A DNA stretch of 63,896 nt, the filler included, from Octopus bimaculoides (lineage: Eukaryota), in NCBI RefSeq assembly GCF_001194135.2. It is 5 parts of 3 records of this genome, joined end to end, with 100 filler letters (N's around TTAATTAATTAA, not from the genome) between each part and the next. Parts side by side here need not be neighbours in the genome. Positions count along the whole stretch, not along the records: positions 1 to 26,231 come from NC_069001.1; positions 26,332 to 39,479 come from NC_068993.1; 3 more parts are not named here. One strand, given 5' to 3'. The notes under the pieces were generated by a model. It did no database searches and was not told where the DNA came from. It was given only the letters and a program-made list of their open reading frames with translations. Both the position numbers and the translations under genes were made by a program. Shown here piece by piece: positions 13,717 through 55,989 of the stretch (positions are counted from its first letter, which is position 1; every line of letters begins with the position of its first letter).

Positions 13717-14002
13717 CAGTTCTATATTTAAGAGATCAGGAATTATGTACATTATTTACAGTTGACGGATATTTGTCTTCATCTTGTTTGTTGTCAACCC
13801 AATGTTTCGGTTGATATACCCTCCAGCCTTCATCAAGTGTCATGGGGAAATTTCGAACCTGGGTTCTCATTCCTGAGGTATTTGTTGATGTTGATGTTAT
13901 TATTATTATTATTATTATTATTCAGGTCACTGCCTGGAATCGAACTCGGAATATTGGGGTTAGCAGCCCGCGCTCTTAACCACTACGCCATATGCCCGTG
14001 GG
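13717..14002 (-). mobile_element. tRNA-headed short element with Penelope-type hammerhead tail, full-length copy 1 (ribozyme core mutated)
   Basis: Minus strand: GGGCATATGGCGTAGTGG (A box)...GAGTTCGATTCC (B box), then (TAA)n, then GACAC-TTGATGA-AGGCTG...CAACC-GAAAC-ATT. Confidence 0.85.
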
Positions 14003-15849
14003 ATACAAACAAGAAAGTAATATTTCAAATGGCAGTATGGCCGTAAAAACAGTAGAAAGATTGAGCATTTTATCCTTATATGACGGGATAAGTTGTCAGC
14101 AGACAGCCATAATAGCTTTGCCTTATTATTAGGTTCATAGGCTTACATCGACAACAATTCCTGAGGCCCACGTAGAATCGGTAAAATTTATTCAAAAGGA
14201 ATACGATAGGTAAAAGTACGAAGAATGAGTCATCGGCTGCGTGACGCTCGGCGGCTTTTGAAACGAAAACCCGAAGGATGCAACTAAANNNNNNNNNNNN
14301 NNNNNNNNNNNNNNNNNNNNNNNNNNNNNNNNNNNNNNNNNNNNNNNNNNNNNNNNNNNNNNNNNNNNNNNNNNNNNNNNNNNNNNNNNNNNNNNNNNNN
14401 NNNNNNNNNNNNNNNNNNNNNNNNNNNNNNNNNNNNNNNNNNNNNNNNNNNNNNNNNNNNNNNNNNNNNNNNNNNNNNNNNNNNNNNNNNNNNNNNNNNN
14501 NNNNNNNNNNNNNNNNNNNNNNNNNNNNNNNNNNNNNNNNNNNNNNNNNNNNNNNNNNNNNNNNNNNNNNNNNNNNNNNNNNNNNNNNNNNNNNNNNNNN
14601 NNNNNNNNNNNNNNNNNNNNNNNNNNNNNNNNNNNNNNNNNNNNNNNNNNNNNNNNNNNNNNNNNNNNNNNNNNNNNNNNNNNNNNNNNNNNNNNNNNNN
14701 NNNNNNNNNNNNNNNNNNNNNNNNNNNNNNNNNNNNNNNNNNNNNNNNNNNNNNNNNNNNNNNNNNNNNNNNNNNNNNNNNNNNNNNNNNNNNNNNNNNN
14801 NNNNNNNNNNNNNNNNNNNNNNNNNNNNNNNNNNNNACTACTACTACTACTACTACTACTACCGCTGCCTGTTGTTGTTTTCGTCATGATTTGAATCGCG
14901 GAGGAAGCAAAACAAAGAGTGTGAAGTAAAAAATCAAGAAGACATCTTTGTTTTTGTTTACGATGAAAAGCTGCAAAGGTGGGAAAAGCCATTAACGTCT
15001 GTATTGGGCATCAAAGAATGGTGAAAATCACTGAGAATCGATATATTTTATGTTCTCTATTATTAGATCAATCGCCCAGCTTCCTGCATTCTGTTGGTGT
15101 GTGTGTGTGTGTGTGTTTGCGTGTGTGAGTGTGTATGTGCGTGTATGACTATATGCGTGTGTGATTGTGTGAGTGTATGTGATTATGTGTGTGTGATTGT
15201 GTGTGCCTGTGTGTTCATATATGACTGCGTGTGTACGAGATTGTGTGTTTTTCATTTTACTAAAATATCAGCATTCATTTTGAGCAAAAATTTCTCCCCC
15301 ACTCACTCTCCATCTCTCTCTCTCTCTCCATATACCTGCGTGCGCGAACATCATGCCCCTCTGGCTGAAATCAATGAAATAATACCCAAACACGTACACG
15401 CATACACGCACCCCGCCACACATTTATACTTGTTTCCGTGTGTGTAATTGTATCTGTTTATGTAGTGTGTATTGCAGCAATTTTCCAATATTTCTACAAA
15501 AACATACATCATTGAATTAGCGGATCAATTTACACGTTTAGCAGTTTAGATGCCAAGCACCTCTTGCGAGGTTTCGATATTCCAGCAAAGTAAATAACAA
15601 CATAACAATAAAGATAACAAACTCAGAAAAACAACCCAACAAATACCATACAAACAAGAAAGTAATATTTCAAATGGCAGTATGGCCGTAAAAACAATAG
15701 AAAGATTGAACATTTTATCCTTATATGACGGGATAAGTTGTCAGCAGACAGCCATAATAGCTTTGCCTTATTATTAGGTTCATAGGTTTACATCGACTGC
15801 AATTCCTGAAGGCTACGTAGAATCGGTAAAATTTATTCAAAAGGAATAC
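14003..15849 (+). repeat. About 200-bp direct repeat pair, 14003-14208 and 15648-15849, roughly 95% identical
   Basis: ATACAAACAAGAAAGTAATATTTCAAATGGCAG...TTCAAAAGGAATAC appears twice, 1645 bp apart, with several substitutions. Confidence 0.9.
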
Positions 15850-16436
15850 NNNNNNNNNNNNNNNNNNNNNNNNNNNNNNNNNNNNNNNNNNNNNNNNNNN
15901 NNNNNNNNNNNNNNNNNNNNNNNNNNNNNNNNNNNNNNNNNNNNNNNNNNNNNNNNNNNNNNNNNNNNNNNNNNNNNNNNNNNNNNNNNNNNNNNNNNNN
16001 NNNNNNNNNNNNNNNNNNNNNNNNNNNNNNNNNNNNNNNNNNNNNNNNNNNNNNNNNNNNNNNNNNNNNNNNNNNNNNNNNNNNNNNNNNNNNNNNNNNN
16101 NNNNNNNNNNNNNNNNNNNNNNNNNNNNNNNNNNNNNNNNNNNNNNNNNNNNNNNNNNNNNNNNNNNNNNNNNNNNNNNNNNNNNNNNNNNNNNNNNNNN
16201 NNNNNNNNNNNNNNNNNNNNNNNNNNNNNNNNNNNNNNNNNNNNNNNNNNNNNNNNNNNNNNNNNNNNNNNNNNNNNNNNNNNNNNNNNNNNNNNNNNNN
16301 NNNNNNNNNNNNNNNNNNNNNNNNNNNNNNNNNNNNNNNNNNNNNNNNNNNNNNNNNNNNNNNNNNNNNNNNNNNNNNNNNNNNNNNNNNNNNNNNNNNN
16401 NNNNNNNNNNNNNNNNNNNNNNNNNNNNNNNNNNNN

Positions 16437-16545
16437 TATTTTACCGACCTCAAAAAGATGAAAGACAAAGATGGCCTTGGCGGGATTCGAACTCAGAACG
16501 CAACGAACCGAAACAAATGCTGCGAGGAACTGTGTCCGATGCTGG
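16437..16545 (-). mobile_element. SINE family A fragment
   Basis: Degenerate reverse-complement core next to a gap. Confidence 0.7.
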
Positions 16546-17271
16546 GTCCCGAATACGTCGGGGACAGTTGAAAAGGCGAATTACACGAGGAAACAAAGAA
16601 TAGGAGACACCAAGGGACCTATATGGGATGGGAATTTAAAACTGTGATGTTAAAGGTTATAAGTAATGACTGTTTTACACTTCAGTTAGATCTTGGGTTT
16701 AATTTAGAATTAAATTGTATTATGTTCGGTAAAAAACTCTACATCCCACCACCACACAACCACATACGCACACACAAATATTCACACACACTCATACGAA
16801 CACAAACAAATATACACATACGGATTAACACGCACATACATGCATACATGCACACATGCACAGATGCTCACAAGCAGTCACATACAACCGACATCCTCTA
16901 CGCGTAAAACACACACAAAGGGTAACGGGGGACCCTCGGCATAACCGTTTGAACAGACAGAAATAGCAGCCAAGTCAGCCAGAAACCACACCGATCGTTT
17001 TAATGAAGGAGCCATTGGACAACGTAAGTCTCTTGGCATGCAAAAAGAAAAAAAAGGGGTTGACGATCACACCTGGAAAGACCTTTTTCATAGGTAGGCT
17101 AGATCAGTATTTATCTGGAACCGAAAAACAATACTAACAGCAAAAACACATACATACACATATACAGTCACACACACACACTTGCACAGATACACAAGCA
17201 GCAACACATCTATAAACACAGACACATACACACAAACGTATATAAATATCAAATTGCAAGGGTTTGCTTAC

Positions 17272-17382
17272 TTGTCCCTTCATAGGATGAACGTTGACCG
17301 GGGCTTTGAAAGCCCGCCGTGTAGGCTCCCGCTTCGCCTCCTCAGGCAAGACTTTGTTCTGATGTGAACGAAAGACAGACAT
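17272..17382 (-). CDS. Candidate first coding exon MSVFRSHQNKVLPEEAKREPTRRAFKAPVNVHPMKGQ
   Basis: tccgccaatATG (A at -3), 37 open codons in unique CpG-containing sequence, ending CAA|gtaagc (phase 0). No polypyrimidine tract upstream. Confidence 0.5.
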
Positions 17383-18577
17383 ATTGGCGGAAATTTTTTT
17401 TTTCAAATTTTTCAAATGTTTTTCCTTCGTATCTTGAACGACCTTTGTCTCAAAATTTCTCCTGATTTATTTTTCCGTTACCGTTTGGCTTGTATCTGTC
17501 TCTTTTACAATTATATATAAATAAATATATATTTATATATCTAGTTCATATATGATTTGTGTTTGTATCATAGCACAGCGAGAACGATGTTCGCACCACT
17601 GATGTGACGAAGAAATGATGGCTGATTATTTGTGTTTAGGTTGGAGAATGTTTACTACAACAATGCATATGTGCATGTATGTATGTATATGAGTGTGTAT
17701 ATGCCTACGTATACCTACGTATTCACGGATTTGTTTCCGCTTGAGTGCATGTATTTATATGTACATGTGCGATACGTCTTTCTTTCTCTCCCAATATATA
17801 TGTATTTACATATATGTGTATGGAAACGTGTTTGTCGAAGAACGGTATGTTTCCGACGAAAGAAGAAAGTGAGAGAAGGTGGAGGAAGAAATGGGAGGAG
17901 TCTGTAATCACGCACGCTCAAACATGTTGATCATCGATTCGTCTTTCTATCAACAGAAAATAAAATCAATAACTACCAAAGTACACATCCCTCTTCTCGT
18001 CTGTCCATCCAGACCAAAAGCCAAGACTTCCGTTGCAAAACTCTTCTGTCTTTGACTGCTGTCATTCGGTAAGAACGAACGGGGTAGAGACCTCATTCAG
18101 AGAAGAATGGAAGTGCGATGGTAGTAGACTAAGAAAGAACGATATAATGGTCTTGTAGTTGGTTCCAGTAGCTGTGTCTCGTGTCATATCTATGTATCTA
18201 TAGTTTCTTCTCGATCTCCATACCTCGGTATAGATTTCTATACACACACACGCATGCGCGTGCACGTGTCAAATCCCGTTCGTGGTTATTTTTCGTCTCT
18301 CATTCTTTCGGGGATCGACAAAAATAAAGACCCACAAATCGACTTACCCACCCACCCACACTTAAAAAAATTTCTGACATTGGGACTCCTGTCAGAAATT
18401 TTGACCACCATGGACATCGCCACCACCAGCCGTCTCTGCTTCCCGCTCACCTCCATTCAGAGCATCATCATACCCTTATACTCATTTGAAAATTATTTGA
18501 AGGATTAAGTTTTTAATATACGAATAAATAAATAAATAAATAGATAATACAGGTCTATAGTTTCTTCTCGGTTTCTA

Positions 18578-18700
18578 TACCCAGGTTCGAAATTTCCCCA
18601 AGACACCTGACGAAGGCTGGAGGGTATATCAGCCGAAACGTTGTGTTAACAACAAACAAGATGAGGACAAATATCCGTCAAATGTAAATAATATAAATAA
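18578..18700 (+). mobile_element. Hammerhead-tail element copy 2 (tail only)
   Basis: Nearly identical to the tails at about 13.8 kb and 28.7 kb. Confidence 0.85.
18602..18647 (+). ncRNA. Minimal type I hammerhead ribozyme motif (intact core)
   Basis: GACAC-CTGACGA-A-GGCTG(10-nt loop)CAGCC-GAAAC-GTT-GTGTT. Stem I is GACAC/GUGUU, stem II is 5 bp, and helix III is reduced to the palindrome AACGTT. Confidence 0.75.
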
Positions 18701-18761
18701 ATAGATGATTGCATAAAACATATAACAGAAAAGTTACTATTTGGTGATAAATTATTGTTAT

Positions 18762-19000
18762 TTCATCCGTCTTTACGTTCTGAATTCAAATTCTGCCATG
18801 GTCGACATTGCTTTCATCCTTTCGGGGTCGATAAAATAAAGTACCGGGTCGATATAATCGATTAGTCCCCCTCCCACAAATTTCAGGCCTTGCGCCTTTA
18901 CTAGAAAGGATTATTGTTAAGGCAGCGAGATAGCAGAATCGTTAGCACGGCAGACAAAATCCTTAACGACATTTCGTCTGTCTTTATATTCTGAGTTCAA
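18762..19000 (+). mobile_element. SINE family A: 5'-truncated copy plus a head fragment
   Basis: Core at about 18775-18912; head GGCAGCGAGATAGCAGAATCGTTAGC at about 18921. Confidence 0.75.
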
Positions 19001-19242
19001 CACTTAAGGATTCTCAACGTGACACAGGATGTGACAAGGCTGACCCTTTGCATTACAGGTACTACTCAGTTCTGCTAGCTGAGTGAACTGGAACAAGGTG
19101 AAATTAAGTGCGTTGCTCAAGGACAAAGTGTACCTCTGAGAATAGCCGAATACGCTAACCACTCAGCCACGCGCCTTCGCTAAAGCAGTTGATGAAGCGA
19201 ATGTTATTTGGATTCAATTTCTACAATTGATAAAATCAATAA

Positions 19243-19614
19243 AGCACGAGCGCTCAGAGAGCGCAAACCTCCGCCAAGGCAACACCAATGTCTCTCAACG
19301 ATTAGCCGGAGGTGTTTTTAAAATGAGAATATCTGAAATAAACTCGGCTGCTCTCACAAACGAGAATATTAAAAAGGAACCTGACCGCTCTCAAAAATTA
19401 AGTAACAAAAACTGGAAAAAAAAATCCAGAATCCTTGTCCGATACCGGATCGATCCCAAAATCTAATCAGTTCGTGCCAATCATGAAGCCAAACATTCCT
19501 GAAAGTTTCATTCGAATCCATCCAGCGGTTCTTGAGATATCTTGTCCACGGACAAACAAACATACAAACACGACTGAAATAACACCTCCACCATCGCTGA
19601 GGCGGAAGTAAAAA
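19243..19614 (-). mobile_element. Non-autonomous Helentron-type (HINE/DINE-1-like) element
   Basis: Minus strand starts TTTTTACTTCCGCC...GGTGGAGGT followed by a GTTT/GTCC microsatellite, and ends with the subterminal inverted repeat CCTTGGCGGAGGT plus a GCGCTC/GAGCGC hairpin in T-rich flanks. Family assignment is by recalled structural similarity. Confidence 0.65.
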
Positions 19615-19683
19615 GTTAAAACAGAAGGATTCGGAGTAGAAATTGAAATATAAACTTCGGTGATAAATCGTGCAATGATATAA

Positions 19684-19719
<36 letters not shown>

Positions 19720-19954
19720 TCTCTCTCTCTCTGTTTCTCTCAATGTGTTCTCTACAGTGAAAATAATGTCATCTTGAGACTAGGCGAAGCTGGTACTCCG
19801 AGTGTACACGTAAACCAAAGGGGAACAGGATTGACCGAGCTGAAGGGAATCTGAGGCAGCGGAAAACTCCCCGCATCAGCTGAAATGTCTGTCAAGATAC
19901 ATAAGCCATAAACTAATCTTATCTTTCCCTTCTTTCAGGCATTCAGGGTCACTG

Positions 19955-20110
19955 ATCGATATGAAGGGTCGATATGAACAAATCGATCCCAGTATTTATT
20001 GGTTTTGTTTTTTAGTCTGGTACTTATTCTATCAGCCTGTTTTGCCGAACTGCTAAGTTACCGGGACATGAACAAACTAAAACCGGTTGCCAAGCGGTGA
20101 TGGTGCACAA
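19955..20110 (-). mobile_element. SINE family B, 3' half
   Basis: TACTTATTCTATCAGCC.GTTTTGCCGAACTGCTAAGTTAC motif. Confidence 0.75.
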
Positions 20111-20179
20111 ACACAAGCACAAGTAGACACATGCATTGGCGCGCGTGGGTGTGTGTGTATGGGTGTGTGTGAGTATGTA

Positions 20180-20223
<44 letters not shown>

Positions 20224-20675
20224 TGTGCGTGTGTGTCTGTAAGTAGGAATGCATGTATGTATGAGTGTGCCCACACGTCTATAATACAATGTTGAGTTCA
20301 TCGCTCCACTTCAAAAGTGTGGTTCATCTTTCTTTAAGAGGCTTTTTTTATTTGACAATTGCCTTTTGTTCTTCCCTTCAACACGGAAAAATAGAAGCAA
20401 CGAATAAAATACGAATAAAATATAATAAAAAGAAGACAAAAAAAAAACAGGAAGAGTTACAAATAAATAAATATATAAAGCGGAAATATATAGCTGGACA
20501 GATTATATTTTAAGCTCAAAGAGGCCTATCCCATGAGGTAAAACAATATACACACCTATATACACACATGCGTGTGTGCGTGTGTCCGTGTACGTGAGCG
20601 TGTGTGTGCGTGTGTGTGTGTGCACGTATGCCTGTATGTGAGTGTGTACATGTGTGTGCATGAGTGGATATATGT

Positions 20676-20716
<41 letters not shown>

Positions 20717-20918
20717 TACACGTCTGAATGTGTACGTGCGCAAGTGTGTATGTACGTGAGCATGTGTGTGTGTGTGTACAAATGGGGAAAAAAAGGTACT
20801 CATGATTACCATTGCACAGAAATGTTTGCATGCAAATGCATGCATGTATACATACATAGACATTAAGACCCGCAAAAGATTCGGACATCAACTGGAAACC
20901 TCCACAGATAGTGATTAA

Positions 20919-21149
20919 GGCGGCGAGCTGGCAGAGTGGTTAGCACGCCGGGCGAAATGCTTAACGGTATTTCGTCTGCCGTTACGTTCCGAGTTCAAAT
21001 TCCTCCGAGGTCGACTTTGCCTTTCATCCTTTCGGGGTCGATAAATTAAGTACCAGTTATGCACTGGGGTCGATGTAATCGACTTAAACCCTTTGTCTGT
21101 CCTTGTTTGTCCCCTCTATGTTTAGCCCCTTGTGGGTAATAAAGAAATA
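20919..21149 (+). mobile_element. SINE family A, best-preserved copy (tail type 2) with 9-bp TSD
   Basis: A box TGGCAGAGTGG and B box GAGTTCAAATTCC. AGATAGTGA occurs at 20906-20914 and 21150-21158. Confidence 0.92.
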
Positions 21150-21309
21150 AGATAGTGACATCGACAACCCAACAAGAGATGAAAGAGGTAGAGGCTTGAG
21201 GTGAATGCAGACAACCTTCGAATGTGACAGAGACTCTCTCAGACAGTATTTCCTAACTGGAGTAAAAACAAATTCATTAACTTAGTGCTGAAAGTGAAGA
21301 GAACAATAT

Positions 21310-21635
21310 TCTGGGGCACCGCCCTGGAGGATTGTAGTCGAACGAATCGAATTTTAAAGCCTGGAACTTATTCTATTTGCTAAATTACGGGGACATAAAC
21401 AAACCAACACCAGTTAGCAAGCAGTGGTGGTGGACGAACGCACACATACATACATACATACATACACAAACGACGGGGCTTCTTTCGGTTTCCGTCTCAC
21501 AAAATCTACTCACAAGGCTTTGGACCAGTCGGGGCCCATAAAAGACGACACTTTCCCAAACTGGCACGCAATGGGTCTGAACCTAGAAACACATGGTTGG
21601 GAAGCAAACATTTTACCACACAGCCACCCATGCGC
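21310..21635 (-). mobile_element. SINE family B (tRNA head, CORE-like centre)
   Basis: Reverse complement of the 51357 copy along its whole length. Confidence 0.85.
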
Positions 21636-21990
21636 TTACGCATAAGTGATTTGGTATTCCCTCTGTTACGTATTATGATACTAATTAGCAGTAGTTTATT
21701 ACAAGTGGAGTATGTCTCGGACATTTACCTATATTAATGATATCTCAAAAGATAAAATCTGTTTTTTTTTTCTTACCCTCAACTACTTTGACTAATTTTT
21801 ATGTAATTTATTTATATTTTTAAAGTTAGTTTACGCAGTTGCTTTTGTAAGTTGTCATCAATCATCACTCATCATTCATCATTACCGTCAATAACAGCAA
21901 CATCTGCTGCCGAGCGGCTAGAAAGTACACACACACACACACACACACACTCTCTCTCTCTCTCTCATACACAAATACATACGCGCGCGT

Positions 21991-22037
<47 letters not shown>

Positions 22038-22314
22038 CACGCGCACACACACATGTGCATATGCACACACAAGCACATGATTCAGGAGACCAAAATACGT
22101 GCCTGGATATGTGGAATTCTAACAACCAAATCCTTTCTGTAGAATGTGCATATGTTAAAGTCACCACCATAAAAGAGGCTAGACAAAAGTGATCTCATGT
22201 CCTGATGATGAGTCAGAGATAGCCACGCAATAACGATAACAATGAACTTAGTAAAGTTACTGTCTCAAAGAAACTGTATCCGTGCGTCCAGCAGTTAAAC
22301 GGTTTGTTCTTTTA

Positions 22315-22500
22315 TCCTTTTGACTGCGGCCATGCTGGAGTACCGTCTTAAAGGGTGTCAGTCGAACAAATCGACCCCAGGACTTATTCTTTGTAAACCT
22401 AGGACTCATTCTATCGATTACTTTTGCCGAACCGCTGTGTTACGGGGCGCATAAACACATCAGCATTGGTTGTCAAGTAACGGAGGAGCGGAACACAGAC
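22315..22500 (-). mobile_element. SINE family B, 3' half
   Basis: TTTGACTGCGGCCATGCTGGAG...GAACAAATCGACCCCAGGACTTATTC. Confidence 0.85.
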
Positions 22501-23417
22501 ACACATACAAATATATATATATATANNNNNNNNNNNNNNNNNNNNNNNNNNNNNNNNNNNNNNNNNNNNNNNNNNNNNNNNNNNNNNNNNNNNNNNNNNN
22601 NNNNNNNNNNNNNNNNNNNNNNNNNNNNNNNNNNNNNNNNNNNNNNNNNNNNNNNNNNNNNNNNNNNNNNNNNNNNNNNNNNNNNNNNNNNNNNNNNNNN
22701 NNNNNNNNNNNNNNNNNNNNNNNNNNNNNNNNNNNNNNNNNNNNNNNNNNNNNNNNNNNNNNNNNNNNNNNNNNNNNNNNNNNNNNNNNNNNNNNNNNNN
22801 NNNNNNNNNNNNNNNNNNNNNNNNNNNNNNNNNNNNNNNNNNNNNNNNNNNNNNNNNNNNNNNNNNNNNNNNNNNNNNNNNNNNNNNNNNNNNNNNNNNN
22901 NNNNNNNNNNNNNNNNNNNNNNNNNNNNNNNNNNNNNNNNNNNNNNNNNNNNNNNNNNNNNNNNNNNNNNNNNNNNNNNNNNNNNNNNNNNNNNNNNNNN
23001 NNNNNNNNNNNNNNNNNNNNNNNNNNNNNNNNNNNNNNNNNNNNNNNNNNNNNNNNNNNNNNNNNNNNNNNNNNNNNNNNNNNNNNNNNNNNNNNNNNNN
23101 NNNNNNNNNNNNNNNNNNNNNNNNNNNNNNNNNNNNNNNNNNNNNNNNNNNNNNNNNNNNNNNNNNNNNNNNNNNNNNNNNNNNNNNNNNNNNNNNNNNN
23201 NNNNNNNNNNNNNNNNNNNNNNNNNNNNNNNNNNNNNNNNNAGCTCATACTATTATCATCACACCATTACCATCACAACCGTCAATCTACTTCCGCCCTC
23301 ACCATCTCTATGCCTATTATTACTCTCACCCCAACAAGAGGAATAGTAGAAGTGTCATTGAATAGTGAGAGCGGGAGTCAAAGTATGACACACTGACACA
23401 CAGAAATTCGTTTAGGC

Positions 23418-23449
<32 letters not shown>

Positions 23450-23453
<4 letters not shown>

Positions 23454-23580
23454 GACGGGCTCACAAGGGTTTTGTCAACCTGAAGCTATAGTAGAAGACA
23501 CTTGCCCAAGGTTCCACGGAGTGGGACTGAACTCGGAACCATGTGGTTGGGAAGCAAGCTTTTTACCACACATCCACGCT
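23450..23580 (-). mobile_element. SINE family B head
   Basis: GAAGACACTTGCCCAAGG...GGGACTGAAC..GGAACCATGTGGTTGG. Confidence 0.85.
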
Positions 23581-23695
23581 TTTTCTAGCAAGTTTGTTCA
23601 TTTCACTAGCAGTTGACTCTTTCTTGAGCATTCTGCCTATCTTCCTCTGACTCGTATACAAGACAGTGGGAACTGAATTTATCTAAAATGCTTAC

Positions 23696-23928
23696 CTCAT
23701 TGAAATACCGGAAATCGTCTTCGGTTCTGGTTTCGAATTTGTTGGACGATGTCTTCACGTCTTTGCCGACTTGGGTATTGTAAGACTCGTTCCCAGATTT
23801 AAACTCTACCCGACTTCCAGTAGTCACTAATCCTTTCGCGCCGCCCTGTGTCAATGTTCTGCATTGATTTGTGGTCCGAGATCCTGTATTGTACGACATG
23901 GCTTGGTCATTTTTTTTGAATTGGGAGC
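23696..23928 (-). CDS. Internal coding exon B (233 nt, phase 1 to 0) of an unrecognised gene
   Basis: cttattcttctacttgtttctttccaaaag|GC TCC CAA...TTC AAT GAG|gtaagc. Reads (G)SQFKKNDQAMSYNTGSRTT...RTEDDFRYFNE with no stop. Confidence 0.75.
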
Positions 23929-24945
23929 CTTTTGGAAAGAAACAAGTAGAAGAATAAGCGAAGCTAATTCACTTTATTTTTAATCGTTCATGTAGAAAGT
24001 ACATGAGTTTAACCGTTTTAATTCTCTAACAGAAAGCTAGTGACCAATTTTGGACCCTAACATAGACCGAGGACCTTAAATTTGGTAGATATAAACAGAA
24101 CTCAACTGCAGAAGCCAATATTTCTTTGTCTGTAAATCAACATAGATTTATTAAGTTAACTTAAAGATTCCCGGACTAACATTTCACTGAGGAGTCTAAA
24201 AAAGACGAAACACAACATCAGCCGCTGTACTTACCAATGAAAATCATGTGATATATATCTGTGATATATAACTGTGATATATCATGTGTGATATATCTGT
24301 AGCATGGAGTTTTGTCGCGGTTTCAAAGCGACGGAAGTATTTTGACAAATTAAATTTAAATGTTGAAGTGAATCTAACGGTTTTTGTGTTTTTAAATGGC
24401 TTATAAACACCTTCCACGCTGCAATTGTATATGTATATATATANNNNNNNNNNNNNNNNNNNNNNNNNNNNNNNNNNNNNNNNNNNNNNNNNNNNNNNNN
24501 NNNNNNNNNNNNNNNNNNNNNNNNNNNNNNNNNNNNNNNNNNNNNNNNNNNNNNNNNNNNNNNNNNNNNNNNNNNNNNNNNNNNNNNNNNNNNNNNNNNN
24601 NNNNNNNNNNNNNNNNNNNNNNNNNNNNNNNNNNNNNNNNNNNNNNNNNNNNNNNNNNNNNNNNNNNNNNNNNNNNNNNNNNNNNNNNNNNNNNNNNNNN
24701 NNNNNNNNNNNNNNNNNNNNNNNNNNNNNNNNNNNNNNNNNNNNNNNNNNNNNNNNNNNNNNNNNNNNNATATTCATGTATGCATGTATGTGTATATGTA
24801 TATGTTTATGTGTGTGTCTATGTGTGTGTATATGCGTGCGTGGGTGCTTGTATGTGTGCTTGTGTGCGTGCGCGTGCATGCCTACGTACGTACGTGCGCG
24901 CGCGAGTGTGTGTCTGCGTGCGTGCGCGTACGTCTCTATGCTTAC

Positions 24946-25134
24946 CCAGTACGGTATCAGCACTGTCTTCTTGAAAAGTTTGCTTCTGGACGAGTTTCCC
25001 ATCGGAAAAAGTCTGCACAGTTCGAGAAGAAGTGGAATATGTTTTGGTAACAATGGATTGTTTTTGACCGGCAGGAGTTGAAGTGTCATCTCTCTCTGGG
25101 AAAGACATCATGAATGGTATTCCTGGGAAATTAA
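24946..25134 (-). CDS. Internal coding exon A (189 nt, phase 1 to 1) of the same gene
   Basis: tttttctcacttttccag|TT AAT TTC CCA...GTA CTG G|gtaagc. Reads NFPGIPFMMSFPERDDTST...QEDSADTVL(G), in phase with exon B. Confidence 0.8.
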
Positions 25135-25153
25135 CTGGAAAAGTGAGAAAAAT

Positions 25154-25156
<3 letters not shown>

Positions 25157-25220
<64 letters not shown>
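25157..25220. repeat. (TAA)n microsatellite
   Basis: About 21 perfect units. Confidence 0.98.
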
Positions 25221-25221
<1 letters not shown>

Positions 25222-25797
25222 CACATGGAGAGCAGATGAACTAAATAGCTTAGACAGAAAGACAAGGAAGTTGCTGACTAGATATGGGACACTCCACCCA
25301 AAACGTGACACAGACAGACTGTATGTACCAAGATAAAGAGGAGGAAGAGGACTGATCGGATGTGAACTCAGCATTAGAGCAGAAGAAAACAACATAGCAT
25401 GGTATGTAAAAAATGCCACAGAACCACTATTATTGGAAGTAAGAAGGTCCGGCTTGTGTAGGATGGAAGATTGCAAAAATAAAGCACTGTAGAAGCACTT
25501 GAGAATGAATGAAACTGAAAATAGGTGGATAAAGAAAAGAATGCATGGACGATTTCATAGGGATGCTGAAGATAAGACAGAGAAAAAAGATGGCTATGGA
25601 TGACTAAAAGTGATTTAAAACCGGAGCAAACATTAAGAACCAATTACATCAAATACAGAATAGACAACACATCAGAAAGTGATAAGTGCAGAATTTGTGG
25701 ACAAAGTGGTGAAACCGTATGGCATATTACCAGTCAATGTACGCCACTAGCCCAGAAAGAATATAAGAGACGTCATGACAATATAGCAAGGATTGTC
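25221..25797 (+). mobile_element. R4/Dong-clade non-LTR retrotransposon fragment (post-RT region and CCHC finger)
   Basis: LDRKTRKLLTRYGTLHPKRDTDRLYVPR*RGGRGL, and CRICGQSGETVWHITSQCTPLAQKEYKRRHDNIARIVH. Confidence 0.85.
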
Positions 25798-25849
25798 CAT
25801 TCGACCCCTGATCTTTTCGTTAACTTTCCATAAAGGCATTCCTTTGTCA

Positions 25850-25910
25850 TATGTTGCAGCCATTCGTAGCATCCTTGTGTAGCAGCCATTTAGTCCGTCA
25901 GTGTCCATGT
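25850..25910 (-). mobile_element. Short LINE RT-thumb remnant
   Basis: LNGCYTRMLRMA resembles the LDGxYTRMLR motif of non-LTR reverse transcriptases. Confidence 0.45.
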
Positions 25911-26231
25911 TTCTGTTGCCATCTTTTATTTTGAGCTCAGATCGAGGGTTTGGACAAAGTCCCATTTCCTGTGGGACAGAGAAAAGGAGCTGAAGTTTCA
26001 GAAATGACAGATTGACTGAGGGATGCGGGTGGGGGATTACCCTTCGTACATCCACTCTCCCTCTCTCTCTCTCCGACAAAGAGACATTTCTAAAACGTCT
26101 GATTCCTCTTCTGAGGATTCTTCTCAGAAACCTCTCAGTATATTTTTTACAGGCACAGACCACCATCACAATCATCTCCATAGCAACCGTTACCAAAACC
26201 AAGACGACCCCGCCCCCTCCACCGCCGCCGC

Positions 26232-26331
26232 NNNNNNNNNNNNNNNNNNNNNNNNNNNNNNNNNNNNNNNNNNNNTTAATTAATTAANNNNNNNNNNNNN
26301 NNNNNNNNNNNNNNNNNNNNNNNNNNNNNNN
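26232..26331. other. Assembly linker (44 N + TTAATTAATTAA + 44 N)
   Basis: Identical 100-bp construct occurs four times in the window. Confidence 0.97.
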
Positions 26332-27883
26332 TATTTATTTAATTTCTAATGAACATAAATGGGATATACCAATACTATATTTGCATACACATGCATAAAC
26401 TAAGAATATGCAAAAGAAACTAATAAATTATAGTAACTAATGAATTTATATACAATTATAAATATTTAGGTGTGAAAAAAAGTATTCGTACAGAATAAAT
26501 CTATGCCACAAGACACTGTTAAAAATTTTTTTTTTAATAGAACTTTCTTGTTTGTTCCAATAATCTTATCAGTGGTCATTTTTAAGTGTCAAAACGCTAG
26601 CTTATTAATTCAGCACTGAGACAACATAAAGTAGTGTCGTAATAATGGCGAAAAGTAAAGAACTCACAAATTCAGTGAAAAACTTAATTATTGAACAGTG
26701 GAAAGCAGGTAAAAGTTTACAGGAAAATATCAGAGACCCTTTGTATTCCATTTTCTACCATATCTTCATTTATTCAAAGATATAAAAAATCGGGAACTGT
26801 TGAAAACAAAATAAGATCCGGTGCACCACGCAAAATTTCCCCTAGTGAAGTATCGAAAAAAACGCAATGATCACCAGAAAGGAGTTGCAAGAAGATTTAT
26901 TAGCTTCAGGGACTAGTGTTATACTATGAACAATCAGCAATGAACTTCATAGGAATGAACTGAAGTCATGCTCTCCTAGAAAAACTCCACTGTTGATTAA
27001 AAGGCATAGAGATGCCCGTTTAAAATTTATTTATGAACATAAAGATAAATCGGATACATTCTGGGAAAATGTTCTTTGGACAGACGAGTCGAAAATTGAA
27101 TTGTCTGGACGAAATTCGCGTAGCCATGTTTGGAGGAAAGACGGTACCACCTATTTGCCAAAAAACACAATTCCTACTGTAAAGTTTGGAGGTGGCAACA
27201 TCATTGTGTAGGGGTGTTTCTCTGCAAATGGTACTGGCAATTTACATGTGATAGATGGTAGAATGAATGCAGAGATGTACCAAAATATTTTGAACAATAA
27301 TTTACGCGACTCTGTAGAAAAGTTCCAGCTTTATGAAGGATGGGTTTAACAACAGGATAACGACCCCAAGCACACGGCGAAGTCTACCAAAAATGGGTTG
27401 TCAATCACAATATAAAATTATTGGAATGGCCAAGCCAGTCACCTGACTTGAACACCATTGAAAATTTGTGGCGTTATTTGAAAATTAAAACTCATTCAAG
27501 AGCCCCAATTCCAGAGCCCCAATTCCAGATTTGAAGAAAATTTGTCAAGAAGAATGGGAAAAAATTCCTAAAGAAACATGCGAATCATTGATCAAGAACT
27601 AGAAGAAGGGAATGGTTGAAGTGGAACTGAATAATGGTTATGCTACGAAGTATTAAATCAGAATTATCAGTTATTTATGTTCTGTACGAATACTTTTTTC
27701 ACCCCTAGATATTTATATTTGTATATAAATTCATTAGTTACTATAATTTATTAGTTTCTTTTGCATATTCTTAGTTTATGTATGTGTATGCAAATATAGT
27801 ATTGGTATATCCCGTTTATGTTCATTAGAAATTAAATAAATAAAGAATTTTGACATGTACGAATATTTATTTCCCCCGCTGTG
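26332..27883 (+). mobile_element. Tc1 element with long IR/DR-type TIRs (left end cut by the linker)
   Basis: 26332-26505 is the inverted copy of about 27670-27842. The right end is ...CCCCCGCTG(TG)+TA. The right TIR holds two TGTACGAATA direct repeats. Confidence 0.93.
26645..27656 (+). pseudogene. Tc1 DDE transposase pseudogene
   Basis: MAKSKELT...SGAPRK, VLWTDESKIEL, GGGNIIV*GCF, QQDNDPKH, WPSQSPDLNTIENLW, with several stops and frameshifts. Confidence 0.93.
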
Positions 27884-28189
27884 TATATATATATATGAGA
27901 AAAAATAAGTTCAAAAAGAACAATTCAAACTTTCTGAAGGATCCAAAAAGAGAGAAAAAGTCATTTCCAATAAAAATTCATCATATTCATCAAAATCAGC
28001 CAGAGCAAGTATTAAGAATATGTAAATAAGAATTGAAAAAGTTTGTTATAAGTATAAAGATACCACAAACAAGTATAAAAATGGAGAAAATATGTTAAAA
28101 TCAAAATTGGACTTAATGCAAAATTGGATTAAATACATACATACGTTTCAAAAGACAATACAAATACGCGCGCGCGTGTCGTTGTGTCT

Positions 28190-28375
28190 GTTTGTCCTCC
28201 ACCACTACATGACAACTGGTATTGATATGCTTTTGTCTCTGTAACTTAGCAGTTTGGTAAAAGAGACTGACAGAAAAAGAGCCAGGCATAAACAAAAATC
28301 AAAATACTGGGTTCCATTCATTCAATTCCCCAGCATGGTCACAGTCTAATGACTGAACAAGTAAAAGATAAGATA
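28190..28375 (+). mobile_element. SINE family B 3' half, CpG-decayed
   Basis: Matches the 51357 copy, but CG sites appear as TG/CA. Confidence 0.75.
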
Positions 28376-28624
28376 AAGACTCTATTAGCCACATAAACTA
28401 TGATGAATTAGTATTCTATAATCACATAAATTATATTGAATGGGTACTGAAGCAAGAATTGTATGAATACATAAGATATATTAACTAAATACTGAAGCAA
28501 ATAATCTATGACAATATACCTTATGCTAACTGAGCACTGTTGATAAAGATGTTATGTATATTGAGTATTAAAAATAAGATTCTATGTTTAAATGTGTTGA
28601 CTGAGTATGAATTAAGTATTTTAT

Positions 28625-28957
28625 GTACATTATTTACATTATTTACATTTGACGGATATTTGTCCTCATCTTGTTTGTTGTTAACACAACGTTTCGGCTG
28701 ATATACTCTCCAGCCTTCATCAGGTGTCTAAATGAAATTTTGAACCTGGGTTCTCATTCCTAAGGTATTTTTCGATGTTGTTGTTGTTGTTGTCATTATT
28801 ATTATTATTATTATTGTTAATATTCAGGTCACTGCCTTCAATCGAACTCGGAATCTTGGGGTTAGTAGCCCGTGCTCTTAACTACTATGCCATATGTCCA
28901 TGGACATATAGCGTCAAATATAAATAATGCAAATAATGTACATAATTCCTCATCTCT
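28625..28957 (-). mobile_element. Hammerhead-tail element copy 3 with an inverted head/tail remnant
   Basis: Same organisation as copy 1 on the minus strand, followed by the palindrome CATATGTCCATGGACATAT and the extreme tail end on the plus strand. Confidence 0.85.
28683..28728 (-). ncRNA. Minimal type I hammerhead ribozyme motif (intact core)
   Basis: GACAC-CTGATGA-A-GGCTG-GAGAGTATAT-CAGCC-GAAAC-GTT-GTGTT. Confidence 0.78.
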
Positions 28958-29189
28958 TAAATATAGAACTGAAGTATTTTATGAATACACAAGTTGACAG
29001 AATACTGAAGTATGTATTCTATAATAATATGTCATGTTGACTGAGCATTTAAATAAGAGCATTTAAACAAGTCAGGTTGACTGAGTATTGCAATATTGAA
29101 TTGAAGTGAAGCTTACAATTGAAGCCTTACAGCTTTAGTAACTAGGATCATGGCACATTTTGATCAGGCCACATGTCCTGAATACCGAC

Positions 29190-32850: not shown

Positions 32851-33946
32851 CAAGGTGCATTCCATAAGGTTTGAAACTATTTCAGGAGAGACATTTATTA
32901 ATTTCAAAGAAGTGCAAAACTCTAGTCTACTTCAAAGCAGGATCCTCTGACTGCATTTGTTGTAGCATTTCAGCAACTTTGTAAAGCCCTGTGGAAGTCC
33001 TTCAGGGCCCCTATCACAGCTTCTTTCATCTTCTCCTTCAGTATTGGGAACAACCAAAAGTCACAGGAAGCAAGGTCTAGAATACAGGGAGGATGAGGGA
33101 CAGTTTTGATGCCCATCTCTGTCAAGTAGTCGGTTACCAGGATGGGACTGTGGACTGATACATTGTCTTGGTGGAGATGCTCCAGCTTTTTGTGATGAAA
33201 TCTCTTCCTGAATTCTCTCAAAATCTCCACAAAGTACTTTTTGTTGACTGCCTGGCCAGAGGCAACCCAGTGGATGTACACGATACCCTTGTTGTCAAAA
33301 AGAACATCATCATGAACTTCCCAGTGAACTTGTTTTCCCTGGCATCTTGTATAGCTGAAAATAGATGCTCAGCTCATATAAGTTAATCAATAAGCATTTC
33401 ATAAGTTTCTGTAGCCTTGTTGCCTATTTAACATAAAACTTTATTGCATAGCCAGCTTCCAAACTGTCTTCACATTCCATTTACATTCTGCAGACAAGTT
33501 AGCTGTGATAAGCAGTGTTTATTAGAGTGTGTTCAAAGTGCTGTTACAGCCATCTCCTTCAATTGAGAATAAACAAAAGCTGGCAGGTCAGCTTATTAGA
33601 TCTATAGTATTGATATATTAAAATTACATTAATCTAGGACACTTTGTGAAGCCCCATGGAACTCCTACAAAGTGAAGGTCCCATGGAAGTCCTTCAGGGC
33701 CCCTATCACAACCTCTTTCATCTTCTCCTTCTGCATTGGGAACAACCAAAAGTCACAGGAAGCAAGGTCTGGAATGCAGGGAGGATGAAGGACAGTTTTG
33801 ATGCCCATCTCTGTCAAGTAGTCAGTTACCAGGATGAGACTGTGGACTGATACATTGTCTTGATGGAGGTGCTCTAGCTTTTTGTGATGAAATCTCTTCC
33901 TGAACTCTCATAAAAAAAAGTTTCAAAAATTTTGGAACACACCTTG
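32851..33946 (-). mobile_element. Rearranged mariner (irritans-like) with TIRs at both ends
   Basis: TA-CAAGGTGCATTCC ... GGAACACACCTTG-TA. HQDNVSVH and HPPCILDLASCDFWLFP motifs; N-terminal YAIKFY...ATETYEML at about 33.4 kb; the C-terminal segment is present twice. Confidence 0.85.
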
Positions 33947-52845: not shown

Positions 52846-53157
52846 ATGCCCTCTTGTTTTGGGGTCGTTACTTGTGGCTTTCATTGTGTCGAGGGACAGC
52901 AACTGTTCATTCTTGTATGAAGAGAAGACGGGTGGGAACTGTGATCGCTGCAGTGGATGGCTGAAAGAGATGGAGGTGGTGGGGGTGGTAGTAGCGATGG
53001 TGACGGTGATGGTTATTGGGGGGGGGGGGCGATGTTGATAATGACAATGATGAAGATAATGGCGGTAGCGGTAGATTGTTAAATTGATTAGTGGTGATAA
53101 TGCTTATTATAAGTGCAATGGTGGTGACGATATTAATTGTGACAATGGAGGTGGTGG

Positions 53158-53516: not shown

Positions 53517-54084
53517 ATATATATATATATATACAGCTTCAAATAGACCTACACATGTTTCTACTGCATTAATTAGTAACTGTTGCAATTGCAGCCTTAC
53601 TATAATACCGGTGCAGTTTCTTTAGGGTCTTCACGTTAATATTCTTTCATTTAACTGTTTAAAGTTTTGCATTGATCTTCTTTGCATTCTATGATGTGGA
53701 ATTGTAAATTAATTTAGACATGAACTATCTTCAATGTGTCTGTATGTGTGCACTTATATATATGGTAAATGCAAGACAGAAAATAGAATATACGAGGATT
53801 TATTATTAATCACAACAATTGTTTCGACACATATAGCATCGATCCCTCATGGGTGGGACACTCAACAACTATATATTATAGTGGGGTAGGCTCGTCTAGG
53901 GGGTTACCCTGGGTTTCTCATTCATAAGTAGTTTAGCCTTACGGTGTATCTTCAGACCCCAAACACTGCTGACCTGAGACCACTTTAAAATATGGAGGGG
54001 GGAAAAGCCTCGTTTTTAAGGGTAAAACCCTAGGTAATTATCTCCCTTTGCCACTGTCCATCGATCTTTGGCCATGCTGCCATC

Positions 54085-55741
54085 TTGCTGTCACCAAAGC
54101 ACTACAAAGGTAAATGATTGTCTCCTTTCAGCCTTGGTTATTGGTTTCTGGCTGTGGTGCCGCCCTGTGGATTCCAAAATGCCAAAAGGAATTTTCTAAA
54201 ATGCAAGCATGATCCGAAAATCTCTGTCTTGGAGTTTAGGATTCCCCCTGGCATGAGCGAGTCTTTAAGGATCCTCGTGCATTCGGCAATGCATAACTTG
54301 CACCATTTCATCCCATTGATGTAGGGACCTGTGTTCTCAAGTATTTTCCATGCAATTGAGTATGGAATCTCTTCATCTCATAATTGATATGGCTGGCCAG
54401 CGATGTCACATATTTCTTTTCTGGGACTCTGAAGGAGGACAGATGATTGGAAATACACTGTTTAAGAGAGTGCCCAGTGCAGCCCATGTACTTCTATGGG
54501 CATGTGATGTCATTGCACCTGTTGCTGTTGTTGTTGGTGCTGTTGCTGCTACCATTGCTGCTAGTGCCACCGGTGGTGTTGTCACTGCTGGAGTTGGGGC
54601 TGCTGCTGTTGGTGCTGGTGTTGGCATTGCTGGGGATGGTGCTGGCGCCGGTCATGTTCTTGATTCTGCACGTGTTGCCTGTGGTGCAGTCATTGTTGCT
54701 GCTAGTGCTGGTGTTGCTGTTGTTGTTGTTGTCGTCGCTGCTGCTGGTCCTGCTGCCAGTGTTGCTGTTGTTGGAGTCAGGGCTGCTGGTGATGGTGAAG
54801 GATGTGGTGGTAGCAACAGTTGTGCTATTGCCACTGCCGGTTCCACTGCTGTTGCCACTATAGCCAGCAATGGAACTGGATCCGTTACCGCTGCTACTAC
54901 AACTATAGTGGCCAATAGGCCTGGCATCATGGATGTTGGAGAAGCTATTAGTAACGCTAGTGGTAGTGGTGGTGGTGGTGATATCACTGCTGTTGGCGAT
55001 GCTGTTGCCATTGTTGTTAGCGATGCTGCCATCCATTGTGACAGTAGTGGTGATGGTGGCTGTGCTACTGTACTGGCTCTGTTGATGGAACTGGACCTGT
55101 TACTTCTGCTACTACTACTATAGTGGCTAATAGGTCTGGCATCATGGACATCAAGGAAGCTATTTGTGAGACTGGTGATGGCGGTGATGCCACTGCTGTT
55201 GTTAGCTATGCTGCCATCCATGGTGATGGTGGTAGCGATGGTGGCTGTGTTACTGGCTCTGTTCTCAGGTCTATGGCTATTATTGCTTCTGCTGGTGTTA
55301 AATGCATGTCTAGTTAGAACCTCGGCTTGATATACAACCCCTTTGGTTTTGCAGCAGCCTTCTACCAGGCAACTGCTTCAGATCCTGCATGAACAGCCTG
55401 CTTCTTCTTGTGTCCTAGGGGCGCTAACTAGGATGATCTTAACGTTTGGGGCACAGCTAAACGAGATCCTAATGTTGTGCCTGTTGAATATGGATCTGTA
55501 CCTATGGGAGCTAGTGAAATTCTTATCTATTAATTTAAGGAAAAGTCTAACTACAGGTATTATTGTGTTAAGGGAGTGTGGGAGCGCAAACCAAATCCTA
55601 TTTCTGTGGCACTTCCTTCTGCAGCTGTTGAGTTCTGGCATGTAGGAGATGCGGTCCCTAAACCCACTGGCAGCTAGGGCCTTATTATAGTATGGGGATG
55701 CTGTGTCGAAGGCTTCTTGAATGGAGGAAAGGCTTGAAATC
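54085..55741 (-). mobile_element. Penelope-like element remnant 1 (RT thumb/linker plus split GIY-YIG)
   Basis: ISSLSSIQEAFDTASPYYNKALAASGF, NRIWF, FNRHNIRISFSCAPN, CSCR..SCLVEGCC..KGVVYQAEV, then the insert, then KYMGCTG..SNHLSSF and WCKLCIAE..RIL...LNSKTEIFGSCLH. Confidence 0.85.
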
Positions 55742-55989
55742 CACTTGCTTATATATTTATGTCTGCATGTATGTATGTGAATCATTATATTAATGTCCTC
55801 TTTTCCATGCCTGCATGGATCAGATGGAATTTTTTGAGGCAGATTTTCTGTTGCCAGATGCCCTTCCTGTTGCCAACTCTCACCTGCTTCCAAATAAGAT
55901 ATCATTTCTCCAAAGACAGACACCTTTGCAAGGAAGTCTGGAAATACATAACACTACTTGTTTGATAAGGACACTTATTTACTACTGTT

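Follow-up and report, generated by a model that had tools for sequence, protein, structure and literature searches.

Three copies of a tRNA-headed repeat and a Penelope-like element

We analysed a stretch of 63,896 nucleotides of Octopus bimaculoides DNA, joined from five parts (54,751 non-N bases) and referred to here as the window. It contains three copies of one repeat, all dispersed monomers, and a decayed Penelope-like element (PLE). Noncoding and about 290 nt long, the repeat starts with a tRNA-like head, continues through a (TAA)n spacer, and finishes in a tail with a minimal hammerhead ribozyme (HHR) motif. The features are as follows.

13717..14002, minus strand: copy 1, a full element with the long 3′ end, a decayed hammerhead, and no target duplication found
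13925..13997, minus strand: tRNA-like head of copy 1, 73 nt, which lines up in register with real tRNAs carrying the same variable-loop/T-arm motif
13882..13924, minus strand: spacer of copy 1, (TAA)n/(CAA)n, variable in length
13796..13841, minus strand: decayed hammerhead of copy 1, with C3U, G16.2A, and mismatches in stem I and stem II
13717..13741, minus strand: optional 3′ extension of copy 1, a PLE-type "tail" that separates the long from the short end class
18532..18706, plus strand: copy 2 with its 14-bp direct repeat (18532-18545 and 18693-18706)
18579..18692, plus strand: copy 2, 5′-truncated and headless, with the short 3′ end, an intact hammerhead (18602-18647), and the cut site after 18642
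28614..28983, no strand: target-site duplication of 12 bp (28614-28625 and 28972-28983) around the whole copy 3 unit
28626..28900, minus strand: main arm of copy 3, with head (28827-28899), spacer, tail, and the short 3′ end
28683-28728, minus strand: intact hammerhead of copy 3, with the cut site after 28688
28901..28971, plus strand: inverted arm of copy 3, made of the first ~13 nt of the head, CGT, and the last ~60 nt of the element
53745..55752, minus strand: decayed Hydra-clade PLE, with thumb/linker, CxCx5C, and a split GIY-YIG
53745-53945, minus strand: 3′ UTR of that PLE, with a decayed hammerhead, colinear with the tail of the repeat

Repeat finding across the window was dominated by microsatellites and runs of N. 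The three tails agree with one another at 101 to 107 of 115 positions, and the heads of copies 1 and 3 agree at 69 of 77. An initial annotation of this DNA had described three copies, two of them with heads, and this is borne out. Its coordinates for copy 1 stand, and those for the other two become 18579-18692 (from 18578-18700) and 28626-28900 (from 28625-28910). It had overlooked the optional 3′ extension of 25 to 34 nt, the inverted arm that takes the copy 3 unit as far as 28971, and the target duplication around that unit. The fusion of head, spacer, and tail that it had described recurs: copies 1 and 3 have the same junction in the same orientation, and contigs bridge it. The 14-bp direct repeat of copy 2 is likely a target duplication, though of low complexity. 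Between its left half and the element lie 33 bases (18546-18578) without explanation.

The family is present in very many copies: each of four DNA-type sequencing runs has between 12,637 and 41,407 contigs that match the repeat. SINEBase asks for a short interspersed element (<1 kb) in at least 100 copies, and we found ~290 nt, dispersed copies, and thousands of contigs. Loose ends of contigs place the 5′ end of the family at 14002 and its long 3′ end at 13717.

A tRNA-like head and a minimal hammerhead

The head is tRNA length and carries an A box (13990-13980 in copy 1) and a B box (13945-13937) at positions +8 and +53 of its 73 nt, in agreement with the Pol III-type head claimed previously. 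Both anticodon-like loops reported there, ctGCTaa and ctACTaa, are present; ctACTaa alone is the norm of the family (97 to 99% of its depth), and the ctGCTaa of copy 1 has the minority letter at position 13964. The head may resemble tRNA-Arg(ACG). SINEBase sets a threshold of 60% identity to a tRNA across 60 nt or more; the best match of the head was a tRNA-Met from a viral contig (46 of 73 positions, 63%), in a comparison set whose members had been preselected by the head motif, and outside that motif 28 of 53 positions match. Eleven of the 21 distinct matches to the motif are tRNAs in register with the head. ARAGORN called no tRNA in the repeat, and Rfam returned no tRNA family for the whole window (E up to 1) or for two copies (E up to 10). 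The element is likely transcribed by RNA polymerase III. The family is also present in contigs of presumed RNA runs, which are silent on the polymerase. The absence of TTTT from the sense strand was considered as evidence and rejected; base composition predicts it (2,513 of 5,000 shuffles).

In copies 2 and 3, the hammerhead reads GACAC-CUGAYGA-A-GGCUG[10]CAGCC-GAAACGUU-GUGUU, exactly as the initial annotation had given it for two intact copies of the three. A descriptor scan of the window found 2 strict hammerhead sites; 100 dinucleotide shuffles yielded none equally strict and a mean of 0.05 looser sites. The motif fits the metazoan minimal HHR consensus (supplement of Cervera and de la Pena 2014, PMC4209133), in line with its earlier assignment to the Penelope type. 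Recognition by the Rfam hammerhead models, to which the initial annotation had looked, did not follow: no hammerhead family matched the whole window (E up to 1) or two copies (E up to 10). The exact pattern had no matches in metagenome and viral contigs.

In copy 1, the damage is at C3, G16.2, stem I, and stem II. In the three non-RNA runs, the intact letter makes up 91 to 99% of family depth at C3 and at the two stem positions, and 47 to 80% at G16.2, a CpG site where the figure is reference biased. Among the rows listed, variation of at least 4% in more than one run is confined to N7 (the one free core position) and CpG sites. In the depth tables, selection on the catalytic core is not separable from conservation of the flanks; the comparison of core with flanks that the initial annotation had named as a refuting condition is ill suited to copies that decay neutrally. 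Taken as a whole, the RNA has no more stable a fold than its shuffles (z = −0.68), and stem I is absent from the full-length minimum-free-energy structure.

Insertion structure and a probable Penelope-type partner

The element ends in fixed, unique sequence, with no poly(A) or simple-repeat tail, and its 3′ ends fall into two classes 25 to 31 nt apart. The long class has loose ends at 13717-13720 (324, 370, and 290 contigs at 13717 in runs X3, X11, and X14) and the short class at 13742 (135, 151, and 134 contigs) and 13748 (77 contigs in X14). Short ends are scattered, over 13742-13748 and 28621-28635. The distance between the classes is at or under the 30 to 40 bp quoted for PLE tails. A 9-nt repeat lies at the short end of copy 3.

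Copy 3 has a second 3′ end, in inverted orientation, and the same 12-bp duplication encloses both arms; a boundary match like it occurred in 87 of 46,118 control intervals. The inverted arm includes the long 3′ end (28971, as placed by contig loose ends), and the long extension is on this arm only. An 18-bp palindrome (28892-28909) bridges the junction of the arms. Contig joints, tabulated like the ends for the best-supported rows, show the same arrangement elsewhere in the family. Four of the best 15 of 80 joints run between the tail (13766-13866) and the opposite strand of the head start (13996-14002), and a further 4 of the best 15 jump from the tail into the head. At 14002, the loose letters are those of an inverted head start in 122, 162, and 138 contigs (X3, X11, and X14). 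In the window, a clear inversion is present in one copy of three; for copies 1 and 2, candidate remnants of an inverted arm were set aside because controls matched them too often (170 and 257 of 5,000). PLE insertions are described as having an adjacent, inverted, 5′-truncated copy and a 30- to 40-bp tail at one end (PMC8557442).

The decayed PLE in the window is a relative of the tail donor, not its exact partner. It carries the CxCx5C linker and the CxxC/CxH motifs that define the Hydra clade, to which we assigned it by these motifs and by comparison by eye with Hydra-1_Obim. In a 28-nt block upstream of the HHR, 24 positions agree between its 3′ UTR and the tail of the repeat, a score reached by 0 of 2,000 shuffles for copy 3 and 20 of 2,000 for copy 1. 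For the whole tail, none of 1,000 shuffles scored as high as the real alignments; among controls from the window, 0 of 741, 1 of 729, and 2 of 747 did. The homology is distant: identity is patchy, the score comes partly from the shared HHR core, and loop 3 of the PLE hammerhead is 4 nt longer. The published Hydra-1_Obim differs from the tail in both HHR and 3′ UTR.

The initial annotation had pointed to an autonomous Penelope ORF ending in the same tail. Scans of metagenome and viral contigs and three motif searches of the Craig 2021 consensus file found no autonomous PLE with the exact tail, and the 3′ UTR in the window is related only distantly. The PLE linker protein gave 305 pattern matches in metagenomes, none confirmed as a relative; a protein search with the linker fragment gave 0 of 309 candidates. 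With the endonuclease fragment, the result was 2 of 26, one of them named from Octopus bimaculoides (75% identity), and 0 of 10 longer relatives of that protein, none full length. Pfam did not recognise the decayed fragments. In the Atlas, the endonuclease piece lies near unnamed clusters (0.93) and GIY-YIG clusters (0.85), a lead only, and the linker gave nothing. No LINE 3′ homology to the repeat was seen in the window.

We consider it quite probable that the repeat is a noncoding, high-copy, tRNA-headed element, likely transcribed by Pol III and likely copied by PLE reverse transcriptase (RT) and GIY-YIG endonuclease. The partner is likely a PLE because copy 3 has an inverted, deleted second 3′ end within one 12-bp duplication, because tail-to-head inversions and two 3′-end classes recur across the family, because the tail is colinear with a Hydra-type PLE 3′ UTR, and because the HHR fits the metazoan consensus and PLEs are abundant and active in Octopus vulgaris (6.83% of the genome; 30 Penelope families recently active [PMC13282606]). 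Dependence on Penelope enzymes, as first proposed for this repeat, is probable from insertion structure and 3′ UTR homology. A 3′ part like a PLE pseudo-LTR, an HHR near the 3′ end, an inverted arm next to the 5′ end, and an optional tail are what a nonautonomous PLE would have, and the repeat shows all four, the tail being slightly shorter than quoted. Counting against the model are the failure to find an exact autonomous partner, the patchy identity to the PLE in the window and its longer loop 3, the scatter of the short ends, the inversion of one copy in three, and the lack of a target duplication at copy 1.

Under the PLE model, transcription by Pol III would start at the head and stop where the flank has its first T-run. 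The tail would be bound by a PLE protein, which would nick both strands of AT-rich DNA and prime cDNA synthesis internally at two positions past the hammerhead, setting the 3′ ends without poly(A). The first cDNA would reach the head, and the second would mostly be truncated or jump by microhomology; joining of the two at the short palindrome at the 5′ end of the head would yield the inverted unit. The template would be uncleaved RNA. In vitro work on the one PLE studied in this way found uncleaved RNA to be the main template and insertion to be normal for HHR mutants (PMC11167929). In that work, two internal RT start sites produce the tail of an anole PLE, with a start 85 to 92 nt beyond the HHR cut; the long end of the octopus repeat lies 84 nt beyond its own cut site. 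The hammerhead would be an inheritance from the PLE terminus, with at most protein-assisted or dimeric cleavage that does not set the ends. The element may have arisen when the 3′ end of a PLE inserted into the microsatellite that closed a simple tRNA-derived repeat.

The initial annotation had proposed instead that self-cleavage processes the ends. A PLE-dependent element whose hammerhead does so, in the style of retrozymes and Sm-alpha, from tandem or dimeric transcripts and perhaps through circles, would account for a core that is intact in most of the family and for repeated variation confined, among the rows listed, to N7 and CpG sites. The ACGU palindrome allows a double hammerhead to be drawn (−22.7 kcal/mol), and dimeric minimal HHRs show weak cleavage in vitro (PMC4209133). 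However, the drawn dimer is weaker than the predicted cofold (−31.2 and −34.8 kcal/mol). The GUU triplet cleaves slowly. All three copies run across the GUU cut site and end 50 to 84 nt downstream, neither end lying at the site; because every copy keeps sequence on both sides of it, self-cleavage does not appear to set the ends. The site is also unmarked among the best 24 of 1,065 and the best 24 of 945 loose ends, there is no step in depth, the window copies are dispersed monomers, and no same-strand tandem of tail end and head start is among the best 15 of 80 joints. We regard end processing by self-cleavage as unlikely.

We give an equally small chance to an ordinary SINE driven by a LINE (e.g., an R4/Dong or RTE partner) with a captured PLE terminus. 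Octopus has active RTE and Dong-R4 LINEs, and the tRNA-like head with A and B boxes, the 5′ truncation, the 12- to 14-bp duplications, and the 9-nt repeat are all compatible with LINE-type target-primed reverse transcription, but the two end classes, the lack of a poly(A) or simple-repeat tail, and the lack of LINE 3′ homology in the window are not what SINEBase describes, namely a simple-repeat 3′ tail and a partner LINE. LINE twin priming is not known to duplicate the 3′ end, whereas the inversions here do. Least probable of all, and in our estimate very improbable, is that there are two elements, a simple tRNA SINE and headless PLE termini that repeatedly insert into its (TAA)n tails. Hydra-clade PLEs favour (TA)n targets, tail depth is ~2 to 3 times head depth, and copy 2 is headless; yet the head-tail junction and orientation are identical in copies 1 and 3, a single duplication encloses head and tail in copy 3, joints from tail to head start recur, and 4 of 32 contig pieces listed bridge the spacer.

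Comparison with known systems

We found no description of a PLE-driven SINE in the literature searched, and, among the papers listed, no transposon paper under "Chuyu," a name that may belong to a PLE-linked nonautonomous family. The repeat may already be catalogued (in the SINEBase table, file 1 of PMC4209133/PMC4758252, bioRxiv supplements, or the Zenodo library of PMC13282606), and it may be OK, OR1, or OR2, the three octopus tRNA-derived SINEs named in 1994 (Ohshima and Okada); one of OR1 and OR2 has been reported as a CORE-SINE. On balance, we lean toward a joint reading in which the family, at around 100,000 copies in order of magnitude, is one of the dominant octopus repeats: a tRNA-headed element driven by Pol III, moved by PLE enzymes, and not yet so described, that has spread a hammerhead motif genome-wide. 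SINEs are defined by dependence on LINEs, a rule that a high-copy tRNA-headed family inserting Penelope style would break. Large-scale mobilisation of Pol III RNAs by PLE proteins acting in trans would then be shown, and part of the octopus "SINE" fraction would be misassigned in repeat annotations. The repeat also offers a natural minimal substrate for asking which features an RNA must have for a PLE protein and what purpose the hammerhead serves; about 170 nt of PLE terminus appear to be enough, and thousands of insertion junctions record how tails and inversions form.

Like tRNA-derived SINEs (SINEBase, PMC3531059), the repeat is short, dispersed, and very high copy, with a 73-nt head bearing A and B boxes; unlike them, it has a PLE-type insertion structure and no LINE-derived or simple-repeat 3′ tail. 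It shares with the minimal HHRs of PLE pseudo-LTRs (PMC4209133) the core, the extra base after A9, G10.1-C11.1, the palindromic helix III, and the AU-rich flank. The Hydra-clade PLEs of Craig et al. 2021 (PMC8557442) have the same inverted 5′ arm, optional 3′ tail, and 5′ truncation. In contrast to PLEs, the octopus repeat has no ORF and has a tRNA-like head in place of the PLE promoter; published Hydra HHRs, including that of Hydra-1_Obim, have a longer helix III.

Cassandra, Helenus, and Ajax (TRIMp3; Kojima 2024, PMC10886601) likewise carry a captured small-RNA Pol III promoter on a LINE-independent, nonautonomous element; their partners are LTR retrotransposons, and Penelope is mentioned 0 times in that paper. 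Under the PLE model, the octopus repeat would add a third kind of passenger with a small-RNA head to the two already known, SINEs driven by LINEs and TRIMp3 driven by LTR elements. Schistosoma Sm-alpha and Sj-alpha (reviewed in PMC6765202) are also noncoding retroelements in which a type I hammerhead lies behind a Pol III-type promoter. They are often in tandem, with the ribozyme freeing monomers from multimers, whereas the octopus HHR is minimal, the ends lie away from the cut, all three window copies are dispersed, and the best 15 of 80 joints include no full-unit tandem; arrays may exist elsewhere. Animal non-LTR retrozymes, as far as the consulted portions of PMC7229834 and of Li, Clavereau and Pollet 2026 (10.64898/2026.07.22.740005) describe them, are noncoding, carry a type I HHR, and are proposed to be nonautonomous derivatives of PLE termini; they are defined by tandem repeats that make circular RNA, and those portions describe no tRNA head and, in the 2026 study, no cephalopod among the groups sampled. 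Sm-alpha and the animal retrozymes are the nearest precedents for the octopus repeat.

Copies and size of the hammerhead SINE family

The hammerhead SINE is a ~290-nt family with a tRNA-like head, a (TAA)n spacer and a tail containing a minimal hammerhead. We re-located its three copies where the initial annotation had placed them, with slightly shifted boundaries:

13717-14002 (-), hammerhead SINE copy 1
18579-18692 (+), hammerhead SINE copy 2
28626-28900 (-), hammerhead SINE copy 3

Between tails, 101-107 of 115 positions agree; between the two heads, 69 of 77 do. The annotated A and B boxes lie at +8 and +53 of the 73-nt head. A variable-loop/T-arm motif of the head, searched in viral contigs, occurred at 29 loci; 11 of the 21 distinct printed matches were ARAGORN tRNAs, of five isotypes, in register with the head. 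The head is therefore tRNA-shaped and may resemble tRNA-Arg(ACG). Rfam and ARAGORN, run on the window, recognized neither head nor hammerhead.

As annotated, complete minimal type I hammerheads are present in copies 2 and 3. These were the only sites in a descriptor scan of the window, and 100 shuffles gave no equally strict site. The core of copy 1 is broken, at letters that are in the minority in the family, most members of which have an intact core. The consensus printed by Cervera and de la Pena (PMC4209133, supplement) agrees with this hammerhead, and their Lottia examples are like it. A relaxed scan returned loose core-like matches at 29178-29207 (+) and 43208-43244 (+), imperfect and possibly due to chance.

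We sampled the family by mapping contigs from public sequencing runs onto copies 1 and 3. The stretch was present in 20 of 24 listed runs, with at least half its words in 14 (four organisms). With copy 3 as the reference, three DNA-type runs gave 32,200, 41,407 and 33,743 matching contigs, and one run guessed to be RNA gave 1,451; with copy 1, the counts across four runs were 12,637, 23,814, 27,559 and 1,315. The family is real and high copy. The window density (3 copies per 54,751 non-N bases) extrapolates, roughly, to 100,000 copies in a genome of 2-3 Gb.

Core variants at or above 4% fell at CpG sites (6-17% in DNA-type runs, copy 3 reference) and N7; those at U4 and U17 were single-run exceptions in guessed RNA runs. 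Since contig depth tables showed the flanks to be about as invariant as the core, core conservation does not by itself point to selection on catalysis.

Other repeats were also seen. At least two abundant short families, detected by recurring translated motifs (18790-18870, 5236-5400, 13000-13250, 51262-51603 and others), may be SINEs. Decayed reading frames at 26930-27208 (+), 30433-31647 (+), 32973-33907 (-) and 25576-25830 (+) resemble transposases of the Tc1, hAT and mariner types and the C terminus of a LINE. Minisatellite arrays occupy 52432-52891 (23-nt units) and 60905-61831 (~25- to 28-nt units).

A Penelope-like element and the probable source of the tail

The window contains a Penelope-like element (PLE):

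53745-55752 (-), decayed PLE

Its CxCx5C linker is interrupted by an internal stop, a long Asn/Ser-rich insert divides its GIY-YIG endonuclease domain, and CxxC and CxH surround a conserved E and N. Such a linker and such motifs around E and N are Hydra-clade features (PMC8557442), and by eye the linker is near that of Hydra-1_Obim, a published PLE in the supplement of that paper. Pfam returned nothing for the fragments, and two of three protein searches returned no relatives; one window protein fragment, marking the host as octopus-like, has 75% identity to an Octopus bimaculoides protein, and an Atlas search gave a GIY-YIG lead for the endonuclease piece only. The insert that separates the GIY half from the YIG half is ~300 residues long; Octopus protein P0001 has a similar one, so this could be a trait of the family. 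A second decayed endonuclease fragment of this kind, with Asn/Ser-rich sequence ahead, lies at 58650-59250 (-).

Along its 3' UTR the PLE aligns colinearly with the SINE tail. Upstream of the hammerhead, 24 positions of a 28-nt block are identical; next comes a decayed hammerhead whose 10-nt loop II ends in TATAT, as in the SINE, and whose loop 3 is 4 nt longer. None of 1,000 shuffles attained the alignment scores; among ~740 window controls, 0-2 did. We concluded that this PLE is a relative of the tail donor, not the SINE's partner. The Hydra-1_Obim 3' UTR (PMC8557442, supplement) is unlike the SINE tail. PMC13282606 puts PLEs at 6.83% of the O. vulgaris genome and counts 30 Penelope families as recently active.

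Insertion structure and the role of the hammerhead

Copy 3 carries, ahead of its head, an inverted arm (28901-28971) that forms a second 3' end in opposite orientation: ~13 nt of head start, a CGT jump and the element's last ~60 nt, with a 3' extension absent from the main arm. An 18-bp palindrome spans the arm junction, and a 12-bp duplication (28614-28625 and 28972-28983) flanks the entire unit exactly, a boundary found for 87 of 46,118 control intervals. The pattern recurs in the family: among the best 15 of 80 family joints, 4 link tail to head start on opposite strands and another 4 jump out of the tail into the head. Across the family, the loose letters found at 5' ends are the head start, inverted, and 3' ends cluster at 13717-13720 and 13742-13748 (best 24 of 945 rows). 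Counting against a PLE-type pattern, inversion is clear in one of three window copies, the copy 1 flanks have no target duplication, and that of copy 2 (14 bp) lies in low-complexity sequence. The 33 bases at 18546-18578, which separate copy 2 from the duplication upstream of it, weakly resemble the inverted element end, as did 257 of 5,000 controls. Separately, 53335-53503 is a near-perfect foldback of another repeat end (arms ~80 bp, -119.5 kcal/mol) that starts in a GAAACGTT motif and stops at a (TA)n run; its appearance is that of another family inserted head to head in the PLE manner.

We consider it probable that the hammerhead SINE is a Pol III-transcribed passenger of PLE enzymes. These enzymes would copy its RNA from two internal priming sites, and the resulting twin cDNAs would unite at the palindrome of the head. 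The initial annotation had assigned self-cleavage a part in end processing. All three copies span the predicted GUU cut site, their 3' ends lying past it by 84 nt in copy 1, 50 nt in copy 2 and 62 nt in copy 3; contig depth is alike on either side, and no loose end falls there among the rows listed. The inserted RNA was therefore uncleaved, and the end-processing proposal lacks support. A monomer is unable to form helix III, and the double hammerhead that one can draw differs from the predicted cofold. Cleavage-dependent processing of the RNA is improbable; our preferred reading of the motif is a piece of the inherited PLE terminus. A LINE-driven SINE carrying a passive PLE piece is similarly doubtful. 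That PLE ends inserted time after time into the microsatellites of SINEs is less probable still; such insertion may have given rise to the first head-tail fusion, because Hydra elements favor (TA)n (PMC8557442).

Relation to known elements

Among the listings of literature searches, mostly of non-subscription papers, none dealt with an octopus hammerhead SINE or a PLE-driven SINE. Quite possibly the family is one of those that Ohshima and Okada (1994) named OK, OR1 and OR2. Measured against the SINE definition of PMC3531059, it departs in tail and probable partner; it departs from the retrozyme definition in that its window copies are dispersed rather than tandem. It behaves like a non-autonomous PLE bearing a SINE head. 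PLE insertions are marked by a 5'-truncated inverted copy beside the 5' end and a 30- to 40-bp tail at one end (Craig et al. 2021, PMC8557442), and copy 3 of the SINE likewise has an inverted arm and a 3' extension at one end. In Frangieh et al. 2024 (PMC11167929), the tail of the anole PLE is traced to two internal reverse transcriptase start sites, both strands are nicked and extended at AT-rich DNA, and the PLE protein is predicted to be dimeric. Hammerhead mutants of that element insert normally and cleavage requires protein; in inserting uncleaved RNA, the hammerhead SINE is like the anole PLE.
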